DNA of 61,413 bases, filler included. It is 7 parts of 7 records of this genome, joined end to end, with 100 filler letters (N's around TTAATTAATTAA, not from the genome) between each part and the next. Parts side by side here need not be neighbours in the genome. Positions count along the whole stretch, not along the records: positions 1 to 27,719 come from SRR15195285_727; 6 more parts are not named here. One strand, given 5' to 3'. Under the pieces are notes generated by a model. That model did not search any database and was not told the origin of the DNA. It worked only from the letters and a program-made list of their open reading frames with translations. A program made the translations under genes and the position numbers. Positions within the stretch are counted from its first letter, which is position 1. The number at the start of each line of letters is the position of its first letter. This document shows positions 3,715-55,603 of this stretch, one piece after another.

Positions 3715-6700
3715 ATGTGGAGCGCTCCGGCACTGGTGGGGCTGCTGGCGGCGCTGCTCGTTTCACCATCCTCGATCGACGGGCAGGCCATGCGCGAGCA
3801 GCGCTACTGCTTCAATCTTGGAGATGGGGTGTGCGACGAGGGCCCGTACACCGAGGCTCCGTGCGCCGTGGGGTCGGACGAATACGACTGCCGACGGCAG
3901 GTCGGCCATGTGCAGGCCGATCCCTACGGTAACGGCTGGCAGGCCGGGCGTATCGTGGACGTACACGATGGACGCTGGCCGACGACTTGGCGTTCCGCGG
4001 AGGTTAGCACTCAGAGCGTCACGATCGAGCTCGATCGACCACGCTGCCTTGCGACGCTGCGCATGACGTGGTGGGATACGTTCTCGGCGCGCGACTACCT
4101 GGTGATGCACTCTCTCGATGGCGAGACCTGGTCCGTATTGTTCAGGGGTGACGACATAGCCAAAGGATATGGCAACCGCGTGGACGATTGGGAGCTTCCA
4201 ACACTTGAGCAAGTGGACGGCGCTATGGTGGGCACGACTGGGCGAATGCGATTTCTTCGCCTGGCCATGGCGACAGGCCATGGCGCTCACTATGAACTGC
4301 AGACAGTGGATTGGACGGAGGACGATGCCCTGTGCCCGGCATGCAATGTTTGCGCAGCCGTTGTTCTGAATGGGGAGGCGAGCACTTGCACCCTTGTGAC
4401 GACGCCTTCTGGCGCGCAATGTGCTTACACCGCAGCCAGCGACCCGGATGGAATCGCTGACAGTGGCGATGAGGTCGAGGAAGCCTGCAATGATGCATTG
4501 ATGGACTGCGCCGCGTGCACGGCGCAAGGATGTGCGTGGTGCGACGAACCGTCAGGTGCATCGTGCAAGCCGGACACAGCAGGATCCTGCCTTGCCTCCT
4601 CGAATCACACAAGCTCTTGGAGAACACCAGAGACGCTGCAGCGGCGCACTTGTGCTGGTGAGTGCGACGGCGAGTATTGCAATCCTGAGACAGGATACCG
4701 CGCCGAGTGGCTGGAAGTTGCTACATACACCGACCCACCGTTCTGGCCAGCCCCTGCATCTGTGTTGCCCGCGTCTACAAAACGAGCGGGTGTCCCACGA
4801 GAATGCGCTGCATTCGAGATTCTTATCAGCGTGGATAACGCAGTGGCCTCGTCAACCCACGCGAGCGAGAATTTTGCCCTCGAGAAGCTGTTCGACGGCG
4901 AGACGTCAGAGATTGCGTTTCAAAACGTATGGCAGACTGCCGCGGGATGCCTAGAAATGACTGGAGACTTCTGCACCAAGATGGAGCCGCAGTGGGTGCG
5001 GTACGATTTCGGCCAGCCTCAGGCAATATGCTCGTATGCGATGCGTAGTCGAAAGCAGGGTAGTCTGCTGTGGATGAGCCCGAAGTCCTGGAATTTCGAG
5101 GGTTCCAACGATGGATATCACTGGATCACGATCTCGCAAGTGAGGAACGAGGACGAATGGGAAGAAACCGCAGACAACGAGTTGCCACAGCTACGTACCT
5201 ATGACCCCGGTCTAGCTGTGTTTCGGTGGTATCGGCTGTACTTTACCGAAGTTTTCGGCGAGGGCCTGCAGGAAACACTAGCGCTGTCTTTGCAGGAGAT
5301 GCAGTTCTTTGCACCACTAAATGAGTGCATATCTGATCCGTTGGAGTACGAGTCGGCCGCCCCTACTGATAGCTCGGATCGTGAGTGCACCATGGTGCTC
5401 CAGTGTACGTCGCTTGAGTATGAAACTGTGGCACCAACAGCCACGAGTGACCGAGAATGTGCTTCTTTACGGTTCTGCCAGTCTTTCGAGTACGAAAGTG
5501 TGGCGGCAACGGCAACGAGCAATCGAGAGTGCACGATGCTCCAGACGTGTCCTGAAGGTTCTTACGAGAGTGTTGAGCCTGCCTGGGTGCAGCCTGCGTG
5601 CACAGGCCCTTCAACCACCTGTTACTTCGTAGCAGATCGCACGTGCTCTTTACTCCCAAACGTGAATGAATTTGTAGTGAGTAGAGTCTACAGCGACGCG
5701 TTGATTGTTCAGTGGTCTCGGCCGGTGATTGCACGAGCCCAGTATAGCTACACAGGCTTCCAGGTATACCTTAACGGGATCAATGCAAAAGCCGTCTCAG
5801 CAGTCTGTGTGGACGGGGGGATGATGTGTGCAGATGCAACAGCAGCTCGAGGGGGATGTCCCGATGGTTGTACAGGAGAGGCAGCAATTCCAGCTGCCGC
5901 TGTTTCATCCGCAATTGTTGCCACGCCGGCTGCGGGTGGCGATGTGGTGTCGCTCGTCGTGGAGGACACCACTATTGCTGCTGGGCAGTTGCTACAGCTT
6001 GCAGATGCTTTCGGTCAGACATGCGCCGCTCAACCGAAGGGCTCAGATTTGGAGGTACAGTCTGTACTGGCTGCAATTGCGGTTCCCGTGGCGTCTGCTG
6101 ATGACACGACTGAAATGGTGACTCTAGCAGTAGAAGAGCTGTCGATTGAGGTAGGCCAGGCACTGCGGTTGGTGAACGCTGAAGGCCAAACATGCCTTGC
6201 AGCGCCCACGGACTCGGATCTGATCGTCGAATCTGTGAGCCGCGCTACGTGCATTACTACTGTCGTGGAGGCCTGTGAGAGTGCAGCTGCAGATCAGGAC
6301 ATTTGCACCAGTGCCGGTGCGTGCACCTTTGCTGCGGCAGCCGGCGACATTCCAGCCACCTGTACGACAACAGAGGTACCAGAGTGTGCGGCAGCGAATG
6401 AAGACGCGGCTACTTGCGTGGCTGCTGGCGCCTGTACATTTACTGGGGCTCAGATCGCGCTCGCCACAGATCTTGAGCTAGGGGATGCATCTGCCATTCC
6501 TCCCCAAGCCTGCAGTGCTCTTACTATTTTGACAACGCTTGACGGGTATGACGCCTTGGTCTACACAGACACCCCTACAGCAGCTGGATTTGCGATTGGG
6601 GACACAGTCGAGATCACAGACACTGGCGGTGGTGCGTGTGCACAAATCGCATACGGCGAAGGTCCATATATCGTCAATTTTGTAGATGACACTTCAGTGC

Positions 6701-9700
6701 GATTCAGCGGCATCGCTGCTGGCGTGAGTAACCCCGTCGACCCGACCCTCTGCTCTATCGGGCGGCCGGCCAGAGATGCGAGCACACAGTGCACATTTGC
6801 TCGGCTGCAGATGCTCACGTTTGCAACGGACTTGACAGTTGGAGACGCGAATGCTGCAGCGTCTTGTGTCGTCACGCGCGCCCACACTTGCGCGGGCACC
6901 GCGAGCTGCATTTTGGGCCAGGAGGGTCAGGCAGAGGATTGCCCAGAATTTTGTGACTACGATCCAGGCCCTGATGAAGTTGTCGAGGCGAATGACTTCA
7001 GCCAGAGTCTTGGTCTGATTCAAACCTTGATCGGCCTGGAGACATCAACCTCGTACACCATCGCAATCCGCACCATCTGGGAGGAATTTGGACCAAGTCT
7101 TGCTGACAAAGCAATCACGCAGGTAACGGGGCCATCGGTTAGTCCGGCTGGACAAGGTACTCGCCTCTGGACGGACGCGATGGAGGTCGCATGGACACCC
7201 CCCGCCTCCCCATTCCCAATCATGGGCTGGGTCCTGTACAGTAGACTTACGCCGTACATTGTCTTGGATAGGCAAGATTGTGGTGGAACAGCGGTTGATA
7301 CACCCGTGACAGCAGATATTGCTGCTGCAACAGTCCCGGCGTGCATTGCAGCCTGCGACGAGAATCTGTACTGTTGCGGCTTTCGTTACGATGCGGAGAC
7401 GAACCCGCTACAATGCACACTGGTGGTCTCCTGCACGTACGAGTGTGGACATGGGTGCATGGGCAATTTCTACAAAAAGCAAGTCGCAGTTCGCGATGAC
7501 CCGCGCGATGTCGTGGGCCTGCACTTTGACAATGACTACACAGGGTCTACGGACACAGCTGCTCTGGTGCAAGGCCTACGAGCTGGCTCGACCTACGATT
7601 TCTGGGCTGTTGCACAAATTGTCGTGGATGGGGAGCTGATGGAGAGCTTGCCGCGCGATGGTACTGGCTCGGTGATGCCGTCTTTTCAACAAATGACGGT
7701 GCCTGCCGGAACAAATCTCATTATGCAGCCGATGACAACTCTGCGCCGGAGTGACGCAATCCAGGTCTCTTGGGATGAGCCCGAAGTACCTAGCGATGTC
7801 ATTATCAACGGGTATCAAGTGTATTACACCGACCCGACTGAGGTTCTCGGGGATGTTGCTTGCGTGGACGATGTCTCGATGTCATGTGAGGCATCAGATG
7901 TATCGTGCCGTTCGACGCATTCCTCTGGCTCTGTGATGGCGTCAGGATGTTGCCAGTCGTGTGCAGGGGTCGGGTTGTTTCCAGATACACCGGCCGTGTC
8001 TAGCCTGGACCTCTTTCCGAGATGTGGTCATTGTGGAGTATTCGTGCCAGCGAACCCAAGGGAGATGCTAATCCGAGGCCTCAGCCCATCCACTTTGTAC
8101 GCGTTCTACATGGTACCGATTATTACCGATCAAGGCCTTGCAGAGCAAGGTGGCTACCCTCACAGCGGTGTTGCGCTGACGCCTCTTACATTCACTGAGT
8201 GGACTGCCCCAGACGTAATTGCGGAAGCCGAAACGACTACGCTGGCTTTTGATTCGGTTAGCTTGTCCTGGGACTTGCCGACGTTGCCTGACGACGGTGC
8301 GGATATCGTGGGCTACATCGTTATGTATCGTCGCTCGATGTGTGGATATTTCGAGAACTCAGTTGAACTTTCAACAGTTTATGGCGCGAATGCTTTTCTG
8401 GGTACTGGACCGATCACTTCTGCAGCGATTGAACATTTGCCTGAGCGCAATACCGAGTATGATTTCGTTGTAGTTCCAATCGTTACTGACAGAAACGGTC
8501 TGGAAACCATCTGTTTTCCATACGTGGGTGGTACTGAAGCGCTGCCACAAGAGCCCACGATTAGGCCCCTGATAGATGCACAGGTGGTCACAGCTTTCTA
8601 TACTGGCCGCACGGCGGATGTGCCAGGTCGACCAACGAAAGTCGTCGCCGTGCCAGCATCAGCAGCACTGGAAGTATCGTTCGAACCTCCTGCGGTGGAG
8701 GGACGATTTAGCGCAGTTGAACCTCTTTACAGAGTATCACTGGTACCCGAGGTGATCATTTACACGATCCATTGCGAAGCAGCAGGCGAGTGTGTCTTTG
8801 CTCCGGCTAATCCATACTCAGGCAGAGAGGCCTCGTGCGCAGCTGTTGCGACTACATTCTGTGAAGATGCCGACCTGGGTGCTGAGGAGATCGATGTGGA
8901 ATTGAAGGCGCAAATGTGTGAGGCAGCTGGTAGGTGTACCTACACGGCAGCCACCGACCCTGACGGAGTAGAGGACAGTGGCGACGAGGTTGTGGAGACC
9001 TGCTGGGCTACCGACTCACTGGCGTGCGCTACGGTTGACCTCGACCTCAATGTCTACATGGAGACCTCTGAGAGCCCAGCTGTAGTCACAGGGCTTTTGA
9101 ATGGTGTCACGTACTCCGCTGCTGTTGCTGCAGCGAACGAGTTTGGGTACGGCCGAGATTCGATTACACCGTCCACAGGCATGCCGTTCTCTGACTGTGA
9201 GCCCTTTGTTCCGTTCGCGCACGCCGACGCCTCATGCCATGACGGCAACGCATTTGGAGCTGTATGCGAAGTGGAGTGCCACGCTGGGTTCTACCAGGTT
9301 GGAAGTACGTTCTACGAGTGCCAGGCAATTGGTGAGTGGCAGGGTGACATGCGATGCCTGGACGTGAACGAGTGCTTGAGCACGCCCTGCACCAATGGAG
9401 GAGCTTGCAGGGATTCGTCCGATCTGAGCCGACCATTGCTTCCTTTCGACACGTTCAACTGCACGTGTAGGTTTGGATATGTAGGGGAACTCTGCAACGA
9501 GTATCTAGATCCTTGCCTCTCCGTGCCATGCCTCAACGGTGGCACATGCGATCATGGCTCCGAGTGGGACTACATTTGCGCGTGCACTGAAAACTTTCAG
9601 GGCGATCATTGCGAACGGTGCGACCCTGGCTGGGAGGGGCCGGACTGTGCGACTGATGTCAACGAGTGCGCCTCCTCTCCGTGCTACAACGATGGCACAT

Positions 9701-21700: not shown

Positions 21701-24700
21701 ACCCGAACGACAAGCTTCGCTGTGAGCTAGCTGGGGAGGAGCCGGGCGTGTGCACATATACGCCATTCCTGCCTACGATATTCGAAGCATGCGAGTCTGT
21801 GGAAATGGCAAACTGCTCGCTTGCCGAGCTGAGCACAACGAATCAGACGGCAGATCTAGAGTCTTGCGATGCTGCAGGAAATTGTACGCTTTGGACGGCA
21901 TCTCGTCACGCTTGTGAGACTGCCGCTGGTGGCAACGGGGCGTGTACATTCACAGACGAGCCACGAAGCTGCGTCGCAACGGATCAGGATGCATGTGCTG
22001 ATGCCAACATACGACGCAACGTGGAGGCGTACACTTTCGATACGCCCAACCGCACCCACGACTCGCAGTACGAGACCTGTCTTCTCGCTGGAGTCTGCAG
22101 CTACACATCGCAGATTTCGGCTGTGACCCAGCCGCTAGAGTGCGACGAAATGTGCGGTGCTGGGTCACAGGTCAATACGACGTCGTCCTTCACTAGCTGT
22201 GAACGCTGCTCGGATGTAGGCCCACGGCACGTCTCGCCTGATGGCACGCCGTGTGTGACCTGCCCAGCCGGACGGCAGGCGAATGACGAGCGCACGCATT
22301 GCTTTGACTGCCCTGCAGGAAAGTACAGCGATCAAGCTGAGAATGGGTGGCATTGCCGAGCATGCCCACCGGGCTGGGAGCCGAACACACGCATCGCTGC
22401 CTGGGCATGCATGCCTTGCCGTACGAACCATTACAGCGCTGGCGACCGATGCCATCATTGCGTAGAGAACACTGTGACCCAGACCTCCGACGGCATGATC
22501 ATTGCTTCTCCCGCTGCTGCAGAGCAATGTCGCTGCCCAGATGGAACTTACGATTCCGCTGTCCTGGCCGGCGAGAGGTCTCACATTTATTGTTGGGATG
22601 ACAGTTACTATACAGCACTGCCGTGGCTGGAACCGTCTAACCGTCCGTCAGAAAAGGACGTTGCGGATGGCAAGAAGTGCATCGCCTGTCCGCGCTGCGT
22701 AGAGTGCGATGGTGGAGTGCCGCGAGTGCGCGCTGGATACCACGTGGGTGGTACAGACGCAGGCAATCTTAGTACTGGTTTGATGCTGTTGTCGGAGAGA
22801 CTGCTACGTGCGGACAGGCACGTTTATCGCTGCCCCAGACCGGAGTTGTGTTTGGGCGAAGTCGCTTCGGGCTGCGACATAATCGATTGTACGCCGATGT
22901 GGTATGAGGCAGAGACAGGCCATGCGGTGACAAGCACAGGGGATGAGTTCACCCGCACTAACCATCTGCACGAACAGGCGGAGCACATCGAAACCCCACC
23001 ACTTCTCGCCGCAGAGTTGGGCAGCACCCGCTGTGCGTCTGGGTTTGACGGGAGATTTTGCCTTGGCACGTGCGTAGACGGAGAAGCAGGCTCTCGTTTC
23101 TGCGACATATCGAAATGTAGTCGCACCGACTGGTCGCTGGTGTACGTATGCGGGGCTGCGGCCATGTTCTTGCTTGGTCTTGCAGTGTCTTGCTGCCGTG
23201 GACAACGGATACATCACGACGCTCGGACACGCCAGTGCTGCTCAAGAGCCCCGAAGAATAGCGATGACCCTGAGCAGACAAGGCCATGTCGCGTACATGG
23301 GCCGTGCTCAGTTGCTACCTACAGGGGTATTGCCGCAATGCTCCTCAAGCCGCTTGAATTGCTCTGGCCGAGGTTGCGCGTAGCACTGACTTTGCTCATG
23401 GGTCTGTACCAAATCCTTTCGTCACTTTCATCTGTGCTTGCTTTGCCGGTGCCATCTCGTGCATGGGCATTGGTCGAGTTCTTCGCGCCAATCGCAAACC
23501 TGGACATGACGCTAATTCCATCGATAGGCTGTGGAATGGGTTTCTACACAGTTATGTGGATCCGGCTGCTGACTGTCGCCGGGATGATTCTGCCAGTATG
23601 GGTGATCTGCTTCATGCGCACACAGTTCAACTGCATCGAAACGCTCAGAGCCAAGAACGGAGGCACGCTCAGAAAGAAGCACAACTCGGTGCATCCGCAG
23701 GAAGAGGCGCCCGTCCACCAGTTGTACCCCGAGGGCGAGGTATACCAGGACAGAAGCGTGCTGGCGATGTTAGCGAATCGCAGGATGCGGAACCACAAAC
23801 TTCGCGAAGGCGCTGCAAATTGGACGTTTGGCGTGATTTTCCTGGCGCTCCCATCACTTGTACGGACAATGCTGCAACTGTACGACTGCCGGCGCATGGA
23901 CGATGGCTCAAGTCATCTCGTTGTAGATGTAAATGTTGTTTGCAGCGAGCCAAGGCCGTTCGACTATGACGATTTAACGGCCACGGGCTCACTTGATCCT
24001 CTGTACGGGTTCCACCTGTCTGTAGCAAGCGCAGTGCTCGCTGCCTGTGCAGCGCTGCCGGCGCTGGCCGGGCTCAGGCTGTGGTACCTCCGTAACAAGA
24101 TTGCTGACGGTTTGAAGATTCCTGCTCTATCCCCTTTGTACCTGCACTGCAAGCCATCTTGCTTTCTGTGGGAGATAGCCAGCATCTTCGGACGTGCGTT
24201 GCTCTGTGGAGGCTTGATTGCCTGGGAGCGTGGGAGCGTGATGCAGCTAGGAGCTGGAGTCTTGCTGAGCAGTACGCTGTCTGCGGCGGTGTTGTGGAGT
24301 CGTCCGCTTGACTCAGGGCCTCGCTCCGAGGAACGGCAGCTGGCAGCGACGAAAGAGCTGGTGGCAGAAGCCAAAGTTGCGGTGAAGACTGCAAGTGCGA
24401 AAGTGAAGAAGCTTCGGATGATGCGGGAACAGAGTAAACGCAAGGCCAATGAGATGCTAACGAAGCTTAACAGGAAGCAGCGAAAGGAGGCAGCCAGGCT
24501 CGTGCGGGAGAGAAACATTGTGGTGGCAGGTGCACCGCAGAGGAAACGGGACCTGAAACCTACAGAAGGCGGCGTGCTGGAAGTGGTGCTTGCTCGATTT
24601 GATGGGCTGCCGACGCTAGACCACAAGGCGGAGAAAATGAGTCGCAATGTGACGCTGGCGGATTACTGGGCGCAGCAAGTCTCCCGCGAAGACCAAAGAA

Positions 24701-25476
24701 GCATCGTGGATGAGCTGAACCGCACCTTCGAGGGCAAAGGATTCCGCCAGAACAAGAAAGGACTGGACATCAAGAACGCCGATAAGACGTATCCGGAGTA
24801 TAAGTTCAGCCATTTGAAGCAGCTCGTCGTGCAAGAGTCGATGAAGGTCCTGCTCGAAGAGCAGGTGCAGCAGAAACGCGACGCCAAGCTCAAGCTGTAT
24901 CAGCTACAGAGGAGGCTGCGGCCATCTGGCGCGGCGGGAGGACGGCTGGCAAACGTCGCGCTCGCGGTGTGCATGGGGACTGTGACCGCAGCGTACCTGT
25001 TGTGTCTGGTGCTCAGAGCTGGGACCAGATACAACTACATCTTGGTCGAACGCTACTTTTCGACTTCGTCGCCGGACACGTCGCTGTTGCAGCTGCGGGA
25101 TGAACGCCCGGAGGCATTGGACTCGCTGGAGGATATAGCGGGGTTGTTGCTCTTGCTCATCCAGATCCCACCACTGGTAGTACTCGGTGCCATGGTGGGG
25201 CTACCATTGCGCGCTGACTGCAAGCGCGCGTCTGCTGCAAGAAAAGCTGCGAAATTCAGGCCTGTGGTTGCGCCAGAACCTGAGCCTGAGGATGAGTCGC
25301 GACCAGTGACTGCAGACTCTGAGCCGAAGGTACAGGAGGAGACGTGGCCAGAGAAGGACGAGGAGACTGATATCTCACGGTCACGGGTACTGATGGAGAA
25401 TGCGTTTGACAAGGTTGGTGCCAAGTTCGGTCGGAAGAGGCCCGAAGGCAAGTACATTACGGCCAGCACAGGCTAG
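3715..25476 (+). CDS. Giant intronless (~7253 aa) cell-surface multipass protein: signal peptide, 2 F5/8-C (discoidin)-like domains, ~5 FN3, sushi, 15 tandem EGF, HYR-like, Ig/filamin-like, long CxxC (growth-factor-receptor-like) array, SEA-like domain, C-terminal multi-TM region
   Basis: One uninterrupted frame. ATG 3715 gives MWSAPALVGLLAALLVSPSSIDG (signal peptide). Motifs: PQWVRYDFG..PKSWNFEGSNDG (F5/8), GLxxxTxY (FN3), DECxSxPCxNGGxC (EGF, 9361-11283), CxxCxxG repeats (~15200-22550), hydrophobic helices at ~23130-25200. Confidence 0.9.
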   Translation: MWSAPALVGLLAALLVSPSSIDGQAMREQRYCFNLGDGVCDEGPYTEAPCAVGSDEYDCRRQVGHVQADPYGNGWQAGRIVDVHDGRWPTTWRSAEVSTQSVTIELDRPRCLATLRMTWWDTFSARDYLVMHSLDGETWSVLFRGDDIAKGYGNRVDDWELPTLEQVDGAMVGTTGRMRFLRLAMATGHGAHYELQTVDWTEDDALCPACNVCAAVVLNGEASTCTLVTTPSGAQCAYTAASDPDGIADSGDEVEEACNDALMDCAACTAQGCAWCDEPSGASCKPDTAGSCLASSNHTSSWRTPETLQRRTCAGECDGEYCNPETGYRAEWLEVATYTDPPFWPAPASVLPASTKRAGVPRECAAFEILISVDNAVASSTHASENFALEKLFDGETSEIAFQNVWQTAAGCLEMTGDFCTKMEPQWVRYDFGQPQAICSYAMRSRKQGSLLWMSPKSWNFEGSNDGYHWITISQVRNEDEWEETADNELPQLRTYDPGLAVFRWYRLYFTEVFGEGLQETLALSLQEMQFFAPLNECISDPLEYESAAPTDSSDRECTMVLQCTSLEYETVAPTATSDRECASLRFCQSFEYESVAATATSNRECTMLQTCPEGSYESVEPAWVQPACTGPSTTCYFVADRTCSLLPNVNEFVVSRVYSDALIVQWSRPVIARAQYSYTGFQVYLNGINAKAVSAVCVDGGMMCADATAARGGCPDGCTGEAAIPAAAVSSAIVATPAAGGDVVSLVVEDTTIAAGQLLQLADAFGQTCAAQPKGSDLEVQSVLAAIAVPVASADDTTEMVTLAVEELSIEVGQALRLVNAEGQTCLAAPTDSDLIVESVSRATCITTVVEACESAAADQDICTSAGACTFAAAAGDIPATCTTTEVPECAAANEDAATCVAAGACTFTGAQIALATDLELGDASAIPPQACSALTILTTLDGYDALVYTDTPTAAGFAIGDTVEITDTGGGACAQIAYGEGPYIVNFVDDTSVRFSGIAAGVSNPVDPTLCSIGRPARDASTQCTFARLQMLTFATDLTVGDANAAASCVVTRAHTCAGTASCILGQEGQAEDCPEFCDYDPGPDEVVEANDFSQSLGLIQTLIGLETSTSYTIAIRTIWEEFGPSLADKAITQVTGPSVSPAGQGTRLWTDAMEVAWTPPASPFPIMGWVLYSRLTPYIVLDRQDCGGTAVDTPVTADIAAATVPACIAACDENLYCCGFRYDAETNPLQCTLVVSCTYECGHGCMGNFYKKQVAVRDDPRDVVGLHFDNDYTGSTDTAALVQGLRAGSTYDFWAVAQIVVDGELMESLPRDGTGSVMPSFQQMTVPAGTNLIMQPMTTLRRSDAIQVSWDEPEVPSDVIINGYQVYYTDPTEVLGDVACVDDVSMSCEASDVSCRSTHSSGSVMASGCCQSCAGVGLFPDTPAVSSLDLFPRCGHCGVFVPANPREMLIRGLSPSTLYAFYMVPIITDQGLAEQGGYPHSGVALTPLTFTEWTAPDVIAEAETTTLAFDSVSLSWDLPTLPDDGADIVGYIVMYRRSMCGYFENSVELSTVYGANAFLGTGPITSAAIEHLPERNTEYDFVVVPIVTDRNGLETICFPYVGGTEALPQEPTIRPLIDAQVVTAFYTGRTADVPGRPTKVVAVPASAALEVSFEPPAVEGRFSAVEPLYRVSLVPEVIIYTIHCEAAGECVFAPANPYSGREASCAAVATTFCEDADLGAEEIDVELKAQMCEAAGRCTYTAATDPDGVEDSGDEVVETCWATDSLACATVDLDLNVYMETSESPAVVTGLLNGVTYSAAVAAANEFGYGRDSITPSTGMPFSDCEPFVPFAHADASCHDGNAFGAVCEVECHAGFYQVGSTFYECQAIGEWQGDMRCLDVNECLSTPCTNGGACRDSSDLSRPLLPFDTFNCTCRFGYVGELCNEYLDPCLSVPCLNGGTCDHGSEWDYICACTENFQGDHCERCDPGWEGPDCATDVNECASSPCYNDGTCFDAFNVWVCECRDGFSGARCEQNIDDCASRPCRSGICHDADNAFTCECAVSTTVAYTGERCFTGPMDRCDDNPCAVHAFCISDDLSGDTCICEFGFSGDPFEECLDVQECASDPCGLGGTCVEPDPSSFGCICRDGFDGAHCDVEIFDCISSPCVNGGLCHDIAPGYLCACAAGFDGDNCEISTDDCASQPCLNGATCSDWVDEYSCFCQAGYSGGRCESELDICLAGIDDCDPELSICTHTGPGSYRCICIEGFSSEDSYSCVDVDECAIYPCDSIGARVCSESTVDVTIPAGRFVCGCRDGFTGPLCEIDLDECIGLPCQNGGVCNQRDGYYTCTCTTGYDGYNCENESDECRSDPCVHGSCTDGVVSYTCVCDAGWDGDNCAVDKDECASEPCQNGATCLHSLRDHQVHDNVLAGGTLDAYSCACAAGYAGLHCESDFDECSSSPCLNGGRCIAYKSTTFGDADAYTCKCLPGYDDEICGTVVNPCLRQTDDCDRVRSECTGLGPGEFKCTCKAGWAGTDCSDDIRIPTLVCPQSLTVTNTDGIAFGTVDAKMLLPAELADNDENTPGLTMRTCVTGFNCVDLTPADFVHVETNTVTFPLGISNVELSAFDSLSGACDVFDNRCGAIGMAQCGDSCIPTSADKAECQFTVTVEHPQVQYYTLSQGDTGHFAPHEGGSIAATATTGSHDQHFFDLRNSGSTTLQVDSVTSDVQWAFIFQGAVYTQLDTPIRLAVGQSARIGVLFHSTTAGVYAGGITVVSNDPFSSRLRVPLSFTVDVATTYTVLLPDAIPQQVMSPLERAATDTTVYNVKESSVGWELLGCTGSSGTRVLPPRWFDGEVTVPPGAVDTSVAWLGALPTCSGILQPGAQQSLEVLFEAPYRAGVYTAAVELSSWCHNPCPLVTLDGTAETCTSAGPCTHVAAVSPVEMSCSCPIDLRSPEEKCTDAGTVDLVVEACVASNPYSAFFTTVCGAVDMRHPSEKCISAGHCEYSRPVGGAFSCTAMDALVCAARVLDSTAAACACGDTPSGLPCIYTPGDSELGISEACTATDVSVCEGVDLTQADSSTCTNAGSCTHRAAVTSSCIYAPPPASSPGALGSCVAADVDACATVELDGSEPTCTDAGLCTYTAPVQIVDEDCVAIDAADCDVTLDGDPTTCTDVVTTTGDACVHTPAAIGVLESCNAAHAAVCGDVEVDGRATTCTSVGDCTHVPAVAGVAEACVATDIAVCTAASLSPEETCDAAGCSFTAPVAQVDEACEPVSPAAGCMIQDPACPTSSTLVEDTGRSTSMLEVSMVVQPGPIDPLSSTVQVVDASTARAGQVLTLQINPVDSYSNGGTPNTIVAAGLGFVLELQGDSREALQFESYFDARRQIYFFEIPLLKSGSFDIRVDTKWTGGTYTIPLTLGSAAEEMLDDCGAGANQIVLHSIALDFPNYEIPLAAGPLRPAAKISNIVVADLCAQVMLDGSPGTCTGVAYPGGCSHIPATLIPPADEACAPTSHPLTYFTSTLTMGSHATAGVDWTISQVPSYLDGLPYIQTIHSDVSSPVDTPDWLCFEIDEDATVYILHDSRASDAPPAWLAQGYQKISDGGFISTVDGSGVTDTWDVYAAERSSGRVCLGGSNAANAQKMYIPVVGPHEIHLCTQTGVVRQMIGIRTTDITVQPGAFVHDVYFTFLLEDAYHQYIADADLTITIEAADDTVALVGSSGELSSKQIGTNSVAWKLRSWALDPCARVGMQTDECGDCVPAYDVPLCSEENSFWKTVRTPDLSDLLREVVDRPGWEAGNAVTFLIEASGASDAVNPAKLIVGETPAFIYSWGEIVDTKQIVVQDAVCWPNSQLDATGSSCICIDGYHPGEDLKSCQPCPQGHYGAAETCIRCPDGKQPSGDRTACEICTSDQAGTGGVCAQCESGRSSTIDRTTCAVCPEGFAGKDGMCDPCESGTEPAHNQEECQACPTTHIGDGIICTICGPGTEPNAEQSVCVPCSAAHVGISGVCVRCDDGEAPNSYGTQCEPCPPGTAGLDGACTVCAAETTPTASRTDCIGCQTGTVSSGGICIACSNGFAGIDGTCEQCENGKEPDEFRATCIPCAPGYAGREGSCFQCGTGQMPSDDLSLCMSCPVGTYGANGETCQACEPGQQPNLGRSGCDDCGFGLYSEDGTKCLTCDAGFEPTKAHDACTQCIGEYSVDGRKCLPCRPDERPDSLYGATSCVQCKETGDAAIGFDGVECTDCLPGYEPGHWTGATNTLCVSCAERGRDWFSREGQQCAQCPAGSEPNTERTGCVFCMTTGTNTFTPAADECAPVGMELGACGCVPVVDAPLCSESGPTCTECEAGKEPLADRTGCMSCAEISNAHISVDGSNCTPCPPGTQANADLSECDRCPLNTVSLQGSPCEVCHDDPLIRRYLIPDAEQLSCLPCPENTYFIADTHECHVCRPGFTLNPDRSLDDPCIVCGTGEVGVDGTCTRCRPGLYANAAHTQCLECGDWEELELYHPFGLVGDADGYIGVDGVCERCGPGTAPGAQTPVDDVLEVVRDDVHTECALCPLGRFSDDGTECKLCEPAHEPNQMSCMPESHWQIGMPPVDVAVDPRTESGVGAPGHNGAVMTLGTGATGCVRCLAGWYSPGSGQFCSSCPMGQQPNAEQTACENCSPGKVSGDGRIIDGQVSGDGFGRLCLPCPPGTQPNEAHDRCIQCEDQISVDGMACISCRMGQFPEFRLLASRCLQCADQNDRSYGANGIFCEICEPGSQPDHFHEARCASIPGTVACPGTDGYCMPAGSQCTDGRGTSAQDEAACALVPGLKACQLIPRLGSAPWFHHDNGHTSVGDCIPIDVPCPADTHNDNSGCLACELIADNVYSTEGAPCRACVPGKQPNGMRTECLSCALLGDNLISPSGSPCISCTAGFKPNLERTECLACTAGQYSSHGVSCGPCSPGEQPSDDATGCVACSTLTDVRSYANLGAAGASVQPVIASMGTLISEATASVGEALSELVAINDAAHPVLPERCEDTVGSCDGYEPGTDGTPSTTCPSGCTLAGLPGVNETCNNTVADCVTGYVPGNLIARSDSCPEVCTLTPAVPESPGVPGLRRLVRQIEFDMLVLGNSFSTSSDFIPGDTMYSLDGRQCLSCFHGMSPDPLHTTCVRCSEGRAGTFGVCKDCEPGKVPNRLQTNCVPCETGKYNPDYGKELCMSCFSEGLHIPSFPGTSCISCRNGTIPVEPLRHTTETSEGCKICDPGWAGVLGVCTPCPGGHRNSLDHTQCDRCPPGTVSAEGIECSSCRPGTRPNPKQTACDLCPEGRYSPDGLQCIDCWPLSVSREDRTWCLCAPGSEDVWEIPLNGTEPVASCRDVNECLVNNGGCDESTQCYNLSPGRLCGECPIGYFGEFYSLGYSILEGNTTCVEPPVDEDEDILSPELKLMMDASVEVLTVQVALGNEICYEQFGVRATSSVVAVDRSEDDVMVDFADGAKIEVKLADTGQGISLRFADGETASTESQQLLSPERLELETGLIADLAMSLGVNQSKIQITSIINPRARRLVQELATIPNRRLQSTIGVEVTFIVISDLPSVFDDLNNQLADPNSTLLTSSTAGTIYRDQFFNLSDGLEVFEFSCTDRLVHDEKTDTCLPCPAGTEFHLNAGERTCVTCPVGRWSPVGGWCIDCPTHEYTPSYGPAAHIWCYRCDPGYTVNATSSGCDACDSHHGYYNADGRDCTRCKSGTRPERKEAARYCVSCQMDGPRHYSSRGLYRDRTVVCTATASDECLVADIGGDDLAWARSAATRDDLHTAVACVASEEQVCNSTDLKYSWRKHTDRRLEGCTVDGCVNHGSRAAAEQACIALEDSCGGILENPSGSWQTRTGVEPHVSEVGQNCWLKETGVLDAQEACESAGGGAVCGYTAYEDEVLERCEATVEFPRTGLRGDIRVCGGGPGTCRGCSAYSPSGCPADNSIPCSSSCASAGIGLPGSALSCVYTPANSSDPDSTDSCIAKAASACAAIDLGDLRVNDPNDKLRCELAGEEPGVCTYTPFLPTIFEACESVEMANCSLAELSTTNQTADLESCDAAGNCTLWTASRHACETAAGGNGACTFTDEPRSCVATDQDACADANIRRNVEAYTFDTPNRTHDSQYETCLLAGVCSYTSQISAVTQPLECDEMCGAGSQVNTTSSFTSCERCSDVGPRHVSPDGTPCVTCPAGRQANDERTHCFDCPAGKYSDQAENGWHCRACPPGWEPNTRIAAWACMPCRTNHYSAGDRCHHCVENTVTQTSDGMIIASPAAAEQCRCPDGTYDSAVLAGERSHIYCWDDSYYTALPWLEPSNRPSEKDVADGKKCIACPRCVECDGGVPRVRAGYHVGGTDAGNLSTGLMLLSERLLRADRHVYRCPRPELCLGEVASGCDIIDCTPMWYEAETGHAVTSTGDEFTRTNHLHEQAEHIETPPLLAAELGSTRCASGFDGRFCLGTCVDGEAGSRFCDISKCSRTDWSLVYVCGAAAMFLLGLAVSCCRGQRIHHDARTRQCCSRAPKNSDDPEQTRPCRVHGPCSVATYRGIAAMLLKPLELLWPRLRVALTLLMGLYQILSSLSSVLALPVPSRAWALVEFFAPIANLDMTLIPSIGCGMGFYTVMWIRLLTVAGMILPVWVICFMRTQFNCIETLRAKNGGTLRKKHNSVHPQEEAPVHQLYPEGEVYQDRSVLAMLANRRMRNHKLREGAANWTFGVIFLALPSLVRTMLQLYDCRRMDDGSSHLVVDVNVVCSEPRPFDYDDLTATGSLDPLYGFHLSVASAVLAACAALPALAGLRLWYLRNKIADGLKIPALSPLYLHCKPSCFLWEIASIFGRALLCGGLIAWERGSVMQLGAGVLLSSTLSAAVLWSRPLDSGPRSEERQLAATKELVAEAKVAVKTASAKVKKLRMMREQSKRKANEMLTKLNRKQRKEAARLVRERNIVVAGAPQRKRDLKPTEGGVLEVVLARFDGLPTLDHKAEKMSRNVTLADYWAQQVSREDQRSIVDELNRTFEGKGFRQNKKGLDIKNADKTYPEYKFSHLKQLVVQESMKVLLEEQVQQKRDAKLKLYQLQRRLRPSGAAGGRLANVALAVCMGTVTAAYLLCLVLRAGTRYNYILVERYFSTSSPDTSLLQLRDERPEALDSLEDIAGLLLLLIQIPPLVVLGAMVGLPLRADCKRASAARKAAKFRPVVAPEPEPEDESRPVTADSEPKVQEETWPEKDEETDISRSRVLMENAFDKVGAKFGRKRPEGKYITASTG

Positions 25477-29474: not shown

Positions 29475-32400
29475 TCACACCGTTGCTTTCAGGCCAACGG
29501 AACTCGCTGTCGGCACGCCCTGCCCTCCACGTGTGTTGTCACAATCCTCTTCGTGGTTTGGTGGTGCCATCGCATCATGTTCCTGCAAGTCTGGAGTACT
29601 GCTGGTATCGCTACGCAGCTGTGCGTACTTATCAGTGCGACGCCAGCGTGCCTGCTTGCATGCATCAAAAGCAAGGCTGAGTTGGTTCATCGTCGTACTT
29701 CGATGGCGCCGATAGATTTGCATGGAGATAATGAGAGTCAAGCCCAACGTGGACCAGCCTGCAAACGTTGAGTCAGCCGTCTGGGCCACCAGTGCCAGGC
29801 AAGCGAGTGATATGGCTTCATGACACTGATGCCGCAGGTGCCGATAAGGTTGACATACCGCGAGGGTCACCAGCGAGAGCAGCAACGTTGTCACTGCTGG
29901 CGTTTGACCTGGGACGTACCAACGAGGCAGGTCAAACGGTGTCGAGGAACCATCTGCTGCGAGTGCGCAGAGTACCAACGAAAACTTTCGGATCGCGTCG
30001 AGCACAAACCATACGCCGGCCGCCCATCCGGGACGGTACAGCTCCGGTAGTAACGCTGGATGCAGAGTTCGGGCCGGATGGATTGCGTCGTCGATGTCGT
30101 GTCCAGGCTGTGCTCTCCAGCATCCCCAGCAAACGATCATATCAGGGATGCCAATGCCGAAGAACAGGAGCACACAGGCTCCAAACACCCATGCACATCG
30201 TGCTTCCGAAGTGATGAAGAACTGTACGGACGGGTCTCCTTGCAGGAGCAAGGACTCCCTCGTGTTGGGGTCCCAGGGCGAACTCCGCGGATCCCAGGGT
30301 GAGCTCCGCGGTAAGACCACAGCCAGGGCGCTCCTGCCGATGGGCAACCAACAGAACTGGTAGATCAGGCCAGCACAACGCCATCCATGAGCTTTTGCGC
30401 GATCGGCTGCGGCGGGTGCAACCACACAGCAAGATGGTAAAATTGCGTAGAGCGCATGGCGTTTTGCAATCGATCCTGGCGGGTCAAGTTTGCACGACGT
30501 CCCAACATTTCGACAGCAGCAGCAACAACAGTAGCAGCTGCTGCTGGACGCATTGTCATCCTTTCCAGACGCCTCCACGACACCGTTATCGCCGTCGTCC
30601 TCATCCTCGCCACTCTCAGACTCAGTGGCCGGCTGTACGCCTTGGCTCTCCTCGCCATCTGAATCGGAATCAAAGGTGATAGCTGCAGACCTGGCGTGCA
30701 GTGATTCTAGCCTCTCTGTCTCTGGGCTTCGGAGCGATCGATTTGCGGCCCATTCTTGAGCTTCTCGCTGTACCACCTCAAGGTGGTCTGCATCACTGGC
30801 AGTCGTGCTCACGCTGCTGCTGCGGTGGCGGGCGGGTGGTCCAGAAACTCTTCCTAGATCCTCGGTGTCATCGCTAGTTGCAGCACTGCTTTGCCGCGAA
30901 GATGACCTTTGAATCGCACAGCCCAGCCAGCATCCGAGGGTGACCAGGAGAGGCATTACCACTGTAGTTATGTAGACGCTGCCAAGAACTCCCACGGCAA
31001 AAGGCGGTGGGCACTGCAGTGGTTCACACGGGTGAACAGCGTGATACGGGTAGCGCTCCGGCTTAACATCGAACGACAGCGCGTCTGAGGTGATGACGAC
31101 GAAATTGTGAATGTAGTCACGCAGATGAGACCCTGGAGTGTACCACCACTCGCTATCTTTTGGAGGAAAGTTCAGCAGCTGCACCGTCTGATAAAAGAAC
31201 CCAAGAGTCCCCAGCGCTGCAGCCACATCAGTGGACAGTGAGGACACCTGCAGTTGTTCTGGGCCTGGCGATAGGTCTTCTGTCTGTACCGCCAGAGAAA
31301 TCCTGTATTCGGGAGAGTCGACATCCAGTGAAACCGGGCGCGCAGCGACGGAGATCAACAGGCCAACCAAGATGCAGATGAATGCTGTCGCGTACGCCGG
31401 CAACCAAGACCCTAATTCACAACAGCGACCAGTGGGCATCTTGTGCGCGCCATCGACGCACTCTGCGCAGAGTCTTCCGGTGTGCAGCACCGCGCAGAAA
31501 TGCGGCGGGTCGCCACAGCTGAGCTGTAGCGTCGAGTTGTACAAATGCTCGACGTCTCTTTCGTCTGCTTTCGCTTCCAGCTCAAGATCAGCGGACCATC
31601 CGAGGCAGTAGTCTGCGGGACACACGAGCTCTGCCCTGCTCAGCGCCATTTCAGCATTTTCCATCCAGAATCCCGGCCGGGGGAACAGAGGGGCGATGCC
31701 ATCAGCTGAGAGATCACCGCCGGGACAAGCACCAACGAACCCAGGCCGTGCCGGACATTTCGCGCACTCGCTCACGCTGCCGTAGTAGCCTGGCTTGCAC
31801 GTGCACGCACCGCCATTTGCAGCCTCGCGTTCAGTGTCCTCACACGTCTGACACGTTACGCCGTCTCCGTACAGAGGCGCAGGACAGACGCTGCACCGCA
31901 GTGAGAACTTTTCGTACGTACAGAATCGACCAATGCCACATGTGGTCGGGGGATGGGCGCTGCAATCCGCAAGGGTGCCGTCCAATTCGACGCAGTGCGC
32001 TGCAAGCGGTCTAAACTCCGTGTCGACGATCAGGGTGGAGAGCGGCGAGCGCACGCGAACGGCACTGCCAATTGGAACAGCAGCCGTGGCCGTGTTGTTT
32101 GAGAAATTGCAGGACGTCACAGACAGGGTGGATTGCTCAGCGTCGATTGCGCCGCCTTCCTCTGCGCTATTGCGTACAAAAACGGCCTGCGTGACAGTGA
32201 GCACGGCGCCACGCGTGGCGTGTAGCGCAGCCCCGTGCATTTGCGCTACGTTGCTCAAGAACGTCGACGAGTCGACGGCCACGCTGGCATCGTTCCCAGC
32301 GTGGACGGCGCCGCCGAACTGCGCAACATTGTGCTCGAACACGGTATGTTCGATGCGCACTGAGCTCCGCGGCCCGATCCAGATAGCCCCACCGGTGTGA

Positions 32401-32858
32401 TCGGCGCGATTTTCGACGAACGCTGAGAGCGCGACCGTCAGGTCGCTGCCATCATGCGCCGCGAGTGCGCCGCCGTGCCAGTCCGCGAGCCCTTGCATCC
32501 GCGTTCGCTGCAGCACCAGCACCGCGGAGGACTCCACGCTGATCCGCGACGGGAACGCCGCGCCGCGTGCCGTCACCGCGCCTGCACTGGCGCCCTGAAT
32601 CAGCCATTCCGACCCCGAGACCAGCACGAACGAGCCGTCTCCATCCATCTCACTCGGCCACTCCAGCTCCTCATCATCACCTGCGACGCACTGCAGCAGC
32701 TGCTGCCGCCGTGGGGCCCTCGCTTCCGCCGGCTGCCCCTCACCGCAGCGTGGCACGGATGAGCTCTCCGCGGCCGCGCTGCTGGCGCGGAAGAGGCAGC
32801 AGAGGCTGCAGCACAGCAGCGCAAGCAGGCCCATCGCCGTGCCCATCGCTGTGCCCAT
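29475..32858 (-). CDS. Signal peptide, polymorphic-membrane-protein-like beta-helix repeats, Cys-rich stalk and multi-TM region (adhesin/receptor-like), intronless
   Basis: LLALLCCSLCCL signal; repeated FxxNxA..GGA(I/V/L); CxxC repeats; CAVLHTGRLCAEC; about 7-9 hydrophobic segments. Start is one of three ATGs in an MGTA tandem. Confidence 0.85.
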   Translation of the reverse strand: MGTAMGTAMGLLALLCCSLCCLFRASSAAAESSSVPRCGEGQPAEARAPRRQQLLQCVAGDDEELEWPSEMDGDGSFVLVSGSEWLIQGASAGAVTARGAAFPSRISVESSAVLVLQRTRMQGLADWHGGALAAHDGSDLTVALSAFVENRADHTGGAIWIGPRSSVRIEHTVFEHNVAQFGGAVHAGNDASVAVDSSTFLSNVAQMHGAALHATRGAVLTVTQAVFVRNSAEEGGAIDAEQSTLSVTSCNFSNNTATAAVPIGSAVRVRSPLSTLIVDTEFRPLAAHCVELDGTLADCSAHPPTTCGIGRFCTYEKFSLRCSVCPAPLYGDGVTCQTCEDTEREAANGGACTCKPGYYGSVSECAKCPARPGFVGACPGGDLSADGIAPLFPRPGFWMENAEMALSRAELVCPADYCLGWSADLELEAKADERDVEHLYNSTLQLSCGDPPHFCAVLHTGRLCAECVDGAHKMPTGRCCELGSWLPAYATAFICILVGLLISVAARPVSLDVDSPEYRISLAVQTEDLSPGPEQLQVSSLSTDVAAALGTLGFFYQTVQLLNFPPKDSEWWYTPGSHLRDYIHNFVVITSDALSFDVKPERYPYHAVHPCEPLQCPPPFAVGVLGSVYITTVVMPLLVTLGCWLGCAIQRSSSRQSSAATSDDTEDLGRVSGPPARHRSSSVSTTASDADHLEVVQREAQEWAANRSLRSPETERLESLHARSAAITFDSDSDGEESQGVQPATESESGEDEDDGDNGVVEASGKDDNASSSSCYCCCCCCRNVGTSCKLDPPGSIAKRHALYAILPSCCVVAPAAADRAKAHGWRCAGLIYQFCWLPIGRSALAVVLPRSSPWDPRSSPWDPNTRESLLLQGDPSVQFFITSEARCAWVFGACVLLFFGIGIPDMIVCWGCWRAQPGHDIDDAIHPARTLHPALLPELYRPGWAAGVWFVLDAIRKFSLVLCALAADGSSTPFDLPRWYVPGQTPAVTTLLLSLVTLAVCQPYRHLRHQCHEAISLACLALVAQTADSTFAGWSTLGLTLIISMQIYRRHRSTTMNQLSLAFDACKQARWRRTDKYAQLRSDTSSTPDLQEHDAMAPPNHEEDCDNTRGGQGVPTASSVGLKATV

Positions 32859-33191
32859 CGAGATGAGAGTACACAAAACGGCTTTACGGCCACGTCGGAA
32901 GCTCCCCTGTTTTCCAGCAATTTGGGATCAATACACGGCGGAATTATCTCATATCATCACGTATGACGTTGAAATGTAGGATTCCTGTAGCAGAAAGGAT
33001 AATCGGCCACGGGAAAGTCGGTAGCGTTGGCAGGAACAGAGTCTCGATTAAAAAATTCACCTCGTCGATGCCCTCCGGTTTGATTCGTAATGCCATCGTC
33101 TGCCGCCGCTCAATCTCGGATCTGCTTCACGTCAGGCTAATTTCAGTAGGGACAATTTACAAATTGAATGAAAAGCAGCGACTCGAGGCGG

Positions 33192-33782: not shown

Positions 33783-36700
33783 CTAACGCCCACCATCCGC
33801 CTGTTCCATGGCCTCTGCAAGAGCCTCTGCTTCTATGGCAGCGATTTCCTTTCGTCTTTCATTTTCGCGGAATGACGCGTCGCTCATCTCGTCGGAAAAG
33901 CGTCTGCTGCGGCGACTCGACCTATTCTCCCTGTCCATACGATCGCGTTCCCGCGCAGTCCCAGACGTCTCGCGTTCTCGGAAACTGTCACTGTCCGAAT
34001 TGCGTCGAGCGCGGGAGCTGCGCGAGAGGATGGATCCACCGGAAGACTGCGCGCTTTTTGAGACCTTGAAGCTGCCCTGGGAACCAACTGACCCACCACT
34101 ATCGACAGCGTTGCTGCGGCGAGAACGCACGGAACTGCCACCACCGACATTGAGAATCGAGCGCGTGGAACTGCTAGAACGAATGTTGCTGCCGGCAGTG
34201 GCAGCAGGCTTGGCTCTGAGCACACGACGGAGGTCCAATTTGCCGCCACCCTTCGCTTTCGCTTTTGCAGTAGAGCCGAGCGCAAATGTGGAGCTCGAGG
34301 TCTGCCCACTTCGCCCACCGGTGTCATCGACGCTGCCCCTCAGGTAGTTCGAGCCCGAGTTCCCTTGCTGCAGAGACTCCAACGCTGCCCGATACTTCCA
34401 AGAGGAGTTAGAACGCAAGTCACCGTCGTCGTACCTGCCACCCCGGCTGACAGAGTTGCTAGTCAACTTCGAGGCACCGCCAGCACTACTGCCGCTGGAG
34501 AGGATTGACTTAGAGCGCAGTGCTGGGTCGCCGACCTTGAAACTTCCCGACTTAAAGCTCCCACCTGAGCGATACGAATCGCCTCCAGAGCGAAGCGTGT
34601 TGGCCCTGAAGGATCCCTGTGCTGAGAAGCTACCGTCTGAGTTGAAACTTCCTGCAGACTGGAGGCTACCGGCCCGAAAACTACCTCCTGATCTAAAACT
34701 ACCGGACCTAAAGCTGCCGCCGGAGCGGAACGACTCACCACCTGCACCAGACCTAAAACTCTGGCCACCTGAGACGAACGATCCGCCGCTGGGTGCTTTG
34801 AAAGAACCACCAGCTGAGACGAACGAACCACCGGACTTGATTGAGTCAGAGCGCAGAGAGCCCGCGCCGTCAGAAGAGTCATCACCTCTGTCTTCTCCCC
34901 TTCCATGTACAGCCTCCCGCATGGCAAACTCAAAGCGTCTCTGCTCAAGCAGAGACATGCCCATCTCACTCAGGTCTTCTGTTGAGATGTGCGCCAAATC
35001 ATCTGGACTGCGGGCTCCGATTCGATGGAACTCTCCAGCGTAGTGCTCGAGCCGCACCTCTGCAAGAAACAATGCAACATCCCTGAATGAGCCGCTGCCA
35101 TCGATCTGAGATCTGACACCGCCCTGTTCCTCACCACGTTCGCGATATGAACTGACCTTGCGATCTTCTCCTGTCTTCGTGGTCTTCGAGAAATTGACTG
35201 ACTTCGAGCGCAAAGAACTGGATTTGACATTCCGCAGCGATCCCGACTTTATATTGCGTAGCGACCCTGATTTCAGAGAGCCTGATTTAAGTGACGAGGC
35301 GCGTAGTGAAGAAGCTGGAAGATGGCCGCTTGAGCGTGATCGGGTGGAGTCCGAGCTTAAGTCGGCGCTGTGTCGCCGTACTCCATCGTCACTCCACTCT
35401 TCGTAGCTGTTCGAGCGCAAGTGACTAGATCCACACATGCTTATGATAACAAGCAGCGCGAGCTCGATGACGACGCGTAATGCTACAGCTACAGCGATGA
35501 CAATAGATGAACCTGCTTCAATCTGATCCTCGGTTGATAGCAAGAGGTCCAGCGCTGTAGTGACGCACACAGCAAACAGTGAAAGTAGACACGCCAGCGA
35601 CACACACCACCGCGCTCGTAAGGCAATTTTAAGTGCACCTGTAGCGTCGGCGACTGGCTTGTCGTATCCATCGTCCTTATAGTCTGGATGAATTTTGGCG
35701 ACTGTGGCTGACCAGCCGCCACCCACGAGCATTTGGCGAATTGGCGTCACTGTCAAATCTGCCAGGGCAAACTCAATCACTGCCACGATCGCTCCGGCCC
35801 ACCAGCTCGCTGTAGCAGCGATGATTGGTGGAATGAGCACAGACCCACAGATGATCAACGTGATCTCGAACGCAAGCGCGGTCAAGTGTACGGATCGATA
35901 CGCGCAGCTCACGTTGACTGTGCAGCACAACGCGAATGGAACTGAGGCTTTCGCGAGCGAATCTGCGCGTCTTCTTGCAACGCATGAACGTGGACGCAGA
36001 GCCAGTGTGCCAATTGCACGAAGATGGATGCTGAAAACGACAAGTATCGCTGCAGCTACGGCACACAGCAGCAGCAAAAGAGCACATTGGAATGCAGAGA
36101 AGGTTTCGGCCTCGGTGGAGTCATCAACGAGGCCCTCGTCATTCTTCGCAACATTCAAGCTGACAGTAGTGCTGTCTTGAACAGGCAAAGCAACATAACT
36201 TCCTATCGAGGCGAAAGAACAGCGAAGCACCTCCGAGCTTAACCTCTCCGAGCTAGTCGAAGCTTCAATTTGCCAGATTCCCGTTGAAGCGTTCCACGAC
36301 CCGCAGCCAAGGGTGACGTTCTGTGATGACGCGAAGATCTGCATGTCCAGACGGACTCTATCAGATGAACGCCGGCCAACGAGAGCTCGGTCCCCGATGT
36401 TCAATGAAAACACGGAAGAACCGAAAAGAGTGCCCTGTTCCGGGTTTGTCTGTTGTGGAAAACTGTCTGATTTCCACTCAATTAGAGACGAATGAGCTCC
36501 GTCACTATCAACGATGTTTTCTGCTGAATCCGCTGAATCCAGAAGACGCGCAGGTAAACTGAATGTGCTTGTTGCGGTACGGGGGTAGACCTGTATTGCA
36601 ATGGCGAACAGACGATGGTCTTGCTCAAACGCCACCTCTCCAGCAACGCGCTGTGATCCCACTGCCGCACCGGTTTTATGCAGAGCAGCCTCACACCTGA

Positions 36701-55503: not shown

Positions 55504-55603
55504 NNNNNNNNNNNNNNNNNNNNNNNNNNNNNNNNNNNNNNNNNNNNTTAATTAATTAANNNNNNNNNNNNNNNNNNNNNNNNNNNNNNNNNNNNNNNNN
55601 NNN
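55504..55603. other. Synthetic contig linker
   Basis: N44-TTAATTAATTAA-N44. Confidence 0.98.

Follow-up and report, generated by a model that had tools for sequence, protein, structure and literature searches.

A probable nested side branch in the first FN3-like domain of a giant surface-type protein encoded without introns

The nesting of one protein domain inside another is usually viewed as an exception, rare and odd, confined to a handful of enzymes and bacterial adhesins. Animal extracellular proteins know it too, in that the integrin beta subunit carries betaI inside the hybrid domain and the hybrid domain inside PSI, a three-level nest that is built of three different folds and fixed across animals, with neither self-nesting nor lineage variation. 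In the RTX adhesins, split Ig-like stalk domains (as in AhLap) project ligand-binding domains, and up to three levels are reached in the order beta-roll > vWFA > insert (PMC12077191). The ectodomain of the insulin receptor offers a eukaryotic case in which an FN3 domain is interrupted by a long insert (PMC2577065). A further example is the Si3 element of the cyanobacterial RNA polymerase beta' subunit, in which hybrid-motif (SBHM/HABAS) domains are described as recursively self-nested to six levels; the same account sets out the general pattern A1-B1-C-B2-A2, in which an inserted domain is itself interrupted and the hosts are completed in reverse order (PMC13114784). Here we compare with these systems a locus in a window of 61,413 nucleotides (nt), by which we mean the whole stretch analysed: seven parts from seven records of one genome, joined end to end, positions 1 to 27,719 coming from SRR15195285_727. 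A frame scan, Pfam matches and orthologs together define in it an open frame at 3517-25476 on the + strand, 7,319 codons without a stop, the product of which looks like a giant surface protein. We put at roughly three in four the probability that the region considered here belongs to the outer portion of that protein and that its first FN3-like domain, FN3-1, carries a nested side branch.

The layers follow one another along the + strand, to which all coordinates below refer unless otherwise given. FN3-1 begins with an N-terminal half at 5650..5787 (amino acids, aa, 712-757), which matches the Pfam fn3 profile over its positions 3-37. The insert then starts at 5788..5940 with a Cys unit, B1 (C..C..CPxxC, aa 764-785), and the leader of a module that we call A, the parts of which, in order, are a, b and c. 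Parts a and b of A lie at 5941..6066 (aa 809-850; independent E-values 1e-8 and 2.9e-6 against hidden Markov models, HMMs, of the parts) and are followed, at an insertion site that we number 2, by the leader of a second copy, A', at 6067..6111 (aa 851-865; sequence reading and part-HMMs). The a and b parts of A' occupy 6112..6237 (aa 866-907; blastp and part-HMMs), and the innermost layer, recognized by its Cys motif, is a pair of ~36-aa four-Cys units at 6238..6444 (aa 908-976). From there the chain works its way outward: part c of A' at 6445..6522 (aa 977-1002; blastp and part-HMMs) closes A'; an uninterrupted, divergent module-like copy, A'', follows at 6523..6771 (aa 1003-1085), beside A' and within A; part c of A at 6805..6885 (aa 1097-1123; independent E-value 1.7e-9) closes A; a second Cys unit, B2, and the end of the insert, placed by the Cys motif and an alignment to a relative described below, take up 6886..6984 (aa 1124-1156); and the C-terminal half of FN3-1 completes the host at 6985..7116 (aa 1157-1200). 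The layer order is thus FN3 > A > A' > two four-Cys units, with A'' beside A' within A.

A preliminary description of the locus had proposed such Russian-doll nesting from eight motifs, all of which are present in this single open frame, at the places it gave for them or a few bases away: LIVQWSRP (5701-5724) and YTGFQVYLNG (5749-5778) in the N-terminal half of FN3-1, the start motifs of A (5983-6066) and A' (6154-6237), IALATDLELGDASA (6454-6495), FAIGDTVEITD (6589-6621), LTFATDLTVGDANAAASCVVTR (6814-6879, against an earlier 6811-6882) and LIGLETSTSYTIAIRT (7027-7074). The paralogy it asserted for A and A' is borne out by blastp against the one protein, the N-parts being 52% identical over 42 aa (E 8e-11) and the tails 57% identical over 14 aa (E 0.012). 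It was wrong, on the other hand, in having a third variant interrupt the tail of A', as A'' (aa ~1003-1085) begins only after A' has closed (aa 977-1002). A'' itself matches the module HMM weakly, reaching 6.5 bits in isolation and -3.1 bits in the context of the full protein, and shares 47% identity over 19 aa with a comparable variant in the related protein P0039 (such P-numbers being our handles for relatives).

The identity of the outermost host is best seen in a relative that lacks the insert. P0009, a 1,077-aa fragment, matches the N-terminal architecture of the window protein, with 52% identity across the region that aligns. The alignment takes in both halves of FN3-1, with invariant residues on each side and a single gap corresponding to window aa 758-1148. 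Because FN3-1 is uninterrupted in P0009, this segment is taken to be an insert, in the C-C' region of the domain. In P0009 a single stretch, residues 666-732, matches Pfam fn3 (profile 11-69) across the site, and three of the four weak matches of its FN3 domain among PDB sequences (E 0.59-1.1) are the FN3 domains of integrin beta-4, Robo3 and PTPRF; these alignments are colinear (14-87 with 15-90), and by them the site falls in the C-C' region. Four further FN3-like domains follow in the window protein at 7129..9156, read from the sequence and from Pfam matches to the C-terminal half of the fn3 profile (42-80, 42-73 and 46-78), giving five in all. In three of these, FN3-2, FN3-3 and FN3-5, a Cys-rich insert follows the equivalent 'Y.V.Y' strand. 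A PAN/apple-like identity for the FN3-2 insert was a reading by eye, with no Pfam match of that kind, and was set aside.

One might suspect that the 1.2 kb between the halves of FN3-1 is an unrecognized intron or an assembly artefact, and the sole point in favor of this is P0009, in which the segment is missing. We give the idea almost no credence. The 399 codons of the insert are open and, at the protein level, 50-70% identical to the ortholog P0003, to which each layer of the nest is 50-80% identical (the whole protein, 68%), and the nest architecture is common to three independently assembled orthologs. Contigs from RNA libraries, representing four runs and four studies, run colinearly over both junctions without a joint (5669-6178, 5730-6101 and 5698-5920 at the 5' junction; 6698-7305 and 6926-7076 at the 3' junction), to be read with the caveat that DNA can occur in RNA libraries. 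P0009 itself is encoded by 3,231 nt on a contig of 4,375 nt, which leaves no room for the 1,173-nt piece; it therefore cannot have been spliced out there.

Module A has a continuous counterpart in other proteins. A full search with aa 700-1210 returned 26 proteins at E <= 0.001, from marine meta-omic sources throughout, none of them bearing a name beyond 'hypothetical'. In these relatives the module runs uninterrupted for ~70 residues, with a turn of some four residues between its start and tail motifs. Such plain copies number 52, of which 24 count as distinct (under 90% identity). A module profile and the profiles of parts a, b and c were built from 14 seed copies, drawn from relatives only. 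When the inserts are removed in silico, A and A' each align nearly end to end with the continuous module, one of the checks that the preliminary description had proposed. As a single domain, spliced A reaches 92.1 bits (HMM 3-69), compared with 56.9 bits for its N-part alone, and spliced A' scores 74.7 bits (HMM 2-61), compared with 48.3 bits. Among 300 controls in which the N-part of A was joined to a random piece, the mean was 57.1 and the maximum 65.1 bits; the same controls for A' gave a mean of 48.6 and a maximum of 55.5 bits. Both A and A' thus have colinear parts a, b and c, two conserved Cys and an end-to-end profile match after splicing.

The same parts, placed in other orders, recur across the relatives. 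The window protein reads ab-ab-c-c, P0004 and its cluster read ab-ab-ab-c-c-c, and P0006, P0013, P0015 and P0051 read a[abc]bc, so that two insertion sites are in use, one between a and b (before the first Cys) and one between b and c (the hairpin). Sixty proteins were scanned in this test of order, close cluster members included and the window protein included twice; 36 had matches, and 22 of these are fully balanced. In P0039, weak matches in the right order trace a further outer copy, split at two places around a three-deep nest, and this nest, four deep with the outer copy, lies entirely between an FN3 N-part and C-part. The part matches would thus indicate nesting up to four deep of the module A kind. 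At the orthologous locus of P0046 the nest is one deep. Among relatives, empty sites are found at every layer (the FN3 host, module A and the Cys units), in answer to the comparison of empty and filled sites proposed at the outset; taken with the order of the part-HMM matches in the window and the relatives, they give the A1-B1-C-B2-A2 pattern at the level of sequence.

Structure prediction is informative for the plain module. AlphaFold with a 15-row alignment returned a mean predicted local distance difference test score (pLDDT) of 83.5 and a predicted TM-score (pTM) of 0.72, with strands at 6-11, 18-21, 33-38, 53-59, 62-65 and 80-84. In this model, parts a, b and c are predicted to form one compact, small beta-barrel domain; the first strand of c pairs with the last strand of b, the b|c site (site 2) falls in a hairpin, at the two-residue turn that joins strand 53-59 to strand 62-65; and the a|b site falls in a loop. 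Foldseek gave no match at E <= 0.001 for the model in PDB (best 1.7e-2) or BFVD (best 6.7e-3). A wider fold search was led by the FCCH domain of E1 (4p22_B; Z 8.0, root-mean-square deviation 2.7 A, 80 of 87 residues aligned), together with the phage tail tube 9n71 (Z 8.0), and had barrels of the elongation-factor type (Z ~6) and the P22 I-domain (Z 5.4) lower down; because a best Z of 7-8 is common for models without a clear match, these values speak to fold class only and not to kinship. In the ESM Atlas the best match, unnamed, reached 0.82, none reached 0.9, and the E1_FCCH lead stood at 0.79. In the group made up of E1 FCCH and the small barrels of phage tail spikes and fibres, several barrels are themselves inserted domains. 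Membership of E1_FCCH (Pfam PF16190) found no Pfam match on the insert or on module-bearing relatives. A lipoyl/SBHM-like barrel, at which the 'GQ.L.L' motif of the module might hint, was dropped as a claim, there being no such chain among the 50 fold matches listed, absence from which does not exclude a family.

Several results weigh against the nested reading. With regard to the host, the N-terminal half of FN3-1 reaches 13.1 bits (E 0.11) against Pfam fn3, a weak match, while the C-terminal half alone has no Pfam match, and even the natural FN3 domain of P0009, at 19.9 bits (E 8.5e-4), falls below the gathering cut-off of PF00041, which is 25 bits. The 55.8 bits that the first 2,000 aa attain against this profile arise only as a sum of pieces, no single stretch passing, and phmmer with each half of FN3-1 found no match among PDB sequences. 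Against a local FN3 profile, made from 68 FN3 domains of relatives and too narrow, the spliced halves score 1.8 bits and the natural domain of P0009 scores -0.9, no better than controls; likewise, hhalign of the spliced four-row alignment against the local FN3 alignment yields a probability of 0.7%, with controls up to 5.9%, its short aligned pieces falling in the expected registers. With regard to the nest, AlphaFold for aa 712-1200 with a four-row alignment gave no usable model and hence no verdict either way (mean pLDDT 30.1, pTM 0.20), and 14 of the 36 proteins in the order test have unmatched or open parts, being fragments or having parts below threshold. A and A', at 52% identity, are each closer (57-62%) to modules in other proteins, from which it follows that the window's own nest is old. 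Finally, cross-paired splices (the N-part of A with the c-part of A', and the reverse) score 81.7 and 84.9 bits, as high as the nested pairs, and sequence alone therefore cannot prove which N-part belongs with which c-part in the outer layers.

This last result, and the failed model of the whole nest, could be turned into an argument that the a+b pieces and the c pieces are mini-repeats in their own right, amplified in tandem as (ab)n(c)n, with the nesting only apparent; a string such as ab-ab-c-c could indeed come from two local tandem duplications. We consider this unlikely, in that a, b and c are contiguous in the 24 distinct plain copies and, in the model, would fold as a single compact domain with a strand of c paired to one of b. 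Every balanced nest, moreover, has a contiguous abc at its core, the a[abc]bc arrangement uses the other site and is not expressible as (ab)n(c)n, and the totals of the three parts over the order test are nearly equal (a 85, b 81, c 83).

The second building block, the four-Cys unit, occurs six times in the window protein as compared with 0.055 times in shuffled sequences, is free-standing in P0007, P0011 and others, and, as a pair of the kind seen inside A', is found in none of the 24 plain modules. The C..C..CPxxC unit occurs four times, with 0.26 expected in shuffles; two of these, B1 and B2, flank the nest, and a contiguous pair is found at aa 5068-5133. B1 and B2 may be one more layer or may be simple tandem neighbors. 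PHROGs and NCBIfam returned 0 families for the insert and for four module-bearing relatives, Pfam likewise does not name the module, and a word search with the module against proteins of near length found only two proteins. The ~70-aa self-nesting module and the 36-aa four-Cys unit are two domain families missing from current libraries.

Pieces of this Cys-rich kind come and go in frame at eight sites among the window protein, P0002, P0003 and P0009. The first follows discoidin-1 (window 4363-4509, aa ~283-331) and is filled in the window protein, P0002 and P0003 and empty in P0009. The second lies inside discoidin-2, at the start of the domain (~4831, aa 438/439), and is filled in P0003 and empty in the other three, the window protein among them; the third is in the linker before FN3-1 (aa ~693); and the fourth is the FN3-1 insert itself (aa 758-1148), empty in P0009. 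The fifth lies within the insert of FN3-2 and the sixth in the FG region of that domain; P0009 alone has these two sites filled, with two cassettes that the window protein lacks. At the seventh, in an EGF domain (~10519, aa 2335), P0003 has a 149-aa Cys-rich insert, and at the eighth, in a CPxxC unit (~18757, aa 5081), P0003 has an insert of at least 62 aa; both are empty in the window protein and P0002. The 68-aa double-Cys cassette in discoidin-2 of P0003 matches the cassette inside A' of the same protein at 63 of 67 residues, and since the orthologs differ by about a third, a recent in-frame copy or gene conversion is called for. At the DNA level, the tail of the site-1 cassette (4420-4488) is 78% identical to a cassette tail inside FN3-5 (8935-9003; repeat family D4). 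At the settings used, the window showed no direct DNA repeats where one layer gives way to the next.

A rival history has the nest grow in place by partial duplication and gene conversion within the gene, not by insertion of whole modules, with the FN3 domain of P0009 emptied by a clean deletion; the architecture would still be nested, but successive insertion would be the wrong account of its origin. No outgroup fixes the direction of change at any of the eight sites, and two old copies made alike by gene conversion could explain the near-identical cassettes of P0003. An all-loss account would need many precise in-frame deletions, however, as the discoidin-2 site is empty in three of the four related proteins, the FN3-2 sites are filled in P0009 alone, and depth at one orthologous locus is one in P0046 and three in P0039; we regard this alternative as unlikely. 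The nested parts, the empty sites and the open frame support the successive in-frame insertions of the preliminary description, each event being either an insertion or a clean loss. The further idea that the small disulfide-braced modules are in-frame copy-and-paste cassettes, still being copied into FN3, discoidin and EGF domains and into themselves, we put forward tentatively and with more doubt than conviction.

Returning to the nested side branch as the preferred reading, we would picture the first of five FN3-like stalk domains as opened in its C-C' region by a side branch of ~390 residues. The branch would begin with the Cys unit B1 and continue into module A, a ~70-residue two-Cys beta-barrel, the beta3-beta4 hairpin of which would take up the second copy A' and the divergent A''; the equivalent hairpin of A' would in turn take up the two 36-residue four-Cys units, after which the chain would close A', pass A'', close A, pass B2 and finish the FN3 domain. 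The ends of these modules are presumably adjacent, which would let them plug into hairpins without breaking the host. By analogy with the split domains of bacterial adhesins, the branch may be a knob for binding or adhesion, braced by disulfides and set to the side of the stalk axis. Its origin would lie in repeated in-frame copying and insertion of small cassettes, a process that may be ongoing in related lineages.

The protein that bears the branch has, according to Pfam, two discoidin (F5/8 type C) domains, fn3, Sushi, many EGF and ephrin-receptor-like Cys repeats. Its hydrophobic segments occur from aa 6541 on, and 487 of its cysteines are N-terminal to that point; the hydrophobic stretch (23137-25476, aa 6541-7319) suggests a multi-pass membrane end. 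The ortholog P0002 is 90% identical to it (6593/7302) and P0003 is 68% identical (4916/7265). Its sequence is also present in a collection of eukaryote proteomes, RNA-library contigs near-identical to the gene come from marine samples, and the neighboring frames encode eukaryotic proteins (the proteasome subunit PSD13, a mitochondrial carrier, an REJ-domain protein, a tubulin-tyrosine ligase and kinases); for these reasons the source is taken to be an intron-poor marine protist. One protein kinase domain on the - strand (55556-61242) is split over two frames, 56611-61242 and 55556-56509, in a way that fits one short intron, and the genome is therefore intron-poor and not intron-free. Two other large genes of surface type lie on the - strand, one at 29475-32876 (1,133 aa, with beta-helix and PMP-like repeats) and one at 33783-41195 (2,470 aa, with REJ, EGF and SAM domains). 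A sharp anomaly of composition is seen at 42001-44000, with a GC skew of 0.238 and an AT skew of 0.219 where values elsewhere are near zero; overlapping frames at 41975-43234 (+) and 42560-43378 (-) in that neighborhood match no Pfam family. The window contains 528 N letters, which indicate a scaffold gap.

If the nested reading holds, a eukaryotic surface protein uses nesting systematically, and its module takes in further copies of itself at defined loops, two or three in number. The natural series of empty and filled sites would bear on how domains tolerate insertion, on how surface-protein architectures arise without exon shuffling, and on graft-tolerant loops that would be useful for protein design. 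Were the copying of cassettes also true, one would be looking at intron-free domain shuffling that produces tree-shaped rather than beads-on-a-string surface proteins, with the depth of the nest a fast-evolving trait in intron-poor marine protists.

How, then, does the locus compare with the systems with which we began? The principle of nesting is known, and the contrast drawn at first with animal extracellular proteins was overstated, nested insertion being a known design. The insulin receptor shares the splitting of a eukaryotic ectodomain FN3 by a long insert, but its insert is ~120 residues long and reported as disordered, not a stack of folded nested modules (PMC2577065). The RTX adhesins share the interrupted beta-sandwich of the stalk, from which a domain with adjacent ends buds sideways before the chain returns to the host; they are, however, bacterial and calcium-dependent, with known lectin, vWFA and RTX heads, whereas here the putative binder is a nest of an unnamed module and Cys units. 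For the plain module by itself, E1 FCCH and the small barrels of phage tails match best in fold, with no sequence relation to it. In Si3, as here, a small domain of the beta-barrel type sits repeatedly inside its own copies, in a loop of a host element, with inserts larger than the host. Si3 belongs to a cytoplasmic bacterial enzyme without disulfides, whereas the present module has two Cys and stands in a probable extracellular eukaryotic protein; there is no sequence match between them and no SBHM chain among those 50 listed fold matches; and nest depth here varies between close relatives. The self-nesting module itself is undescribed, and what is new in the locus is where it stands, in the ectodomain of a eukaryotic protein whose gene lacks introns, together with two unnamed cassette families and self-nesting at defined loops, the depth and occupancy of which vary from one relative to the next.

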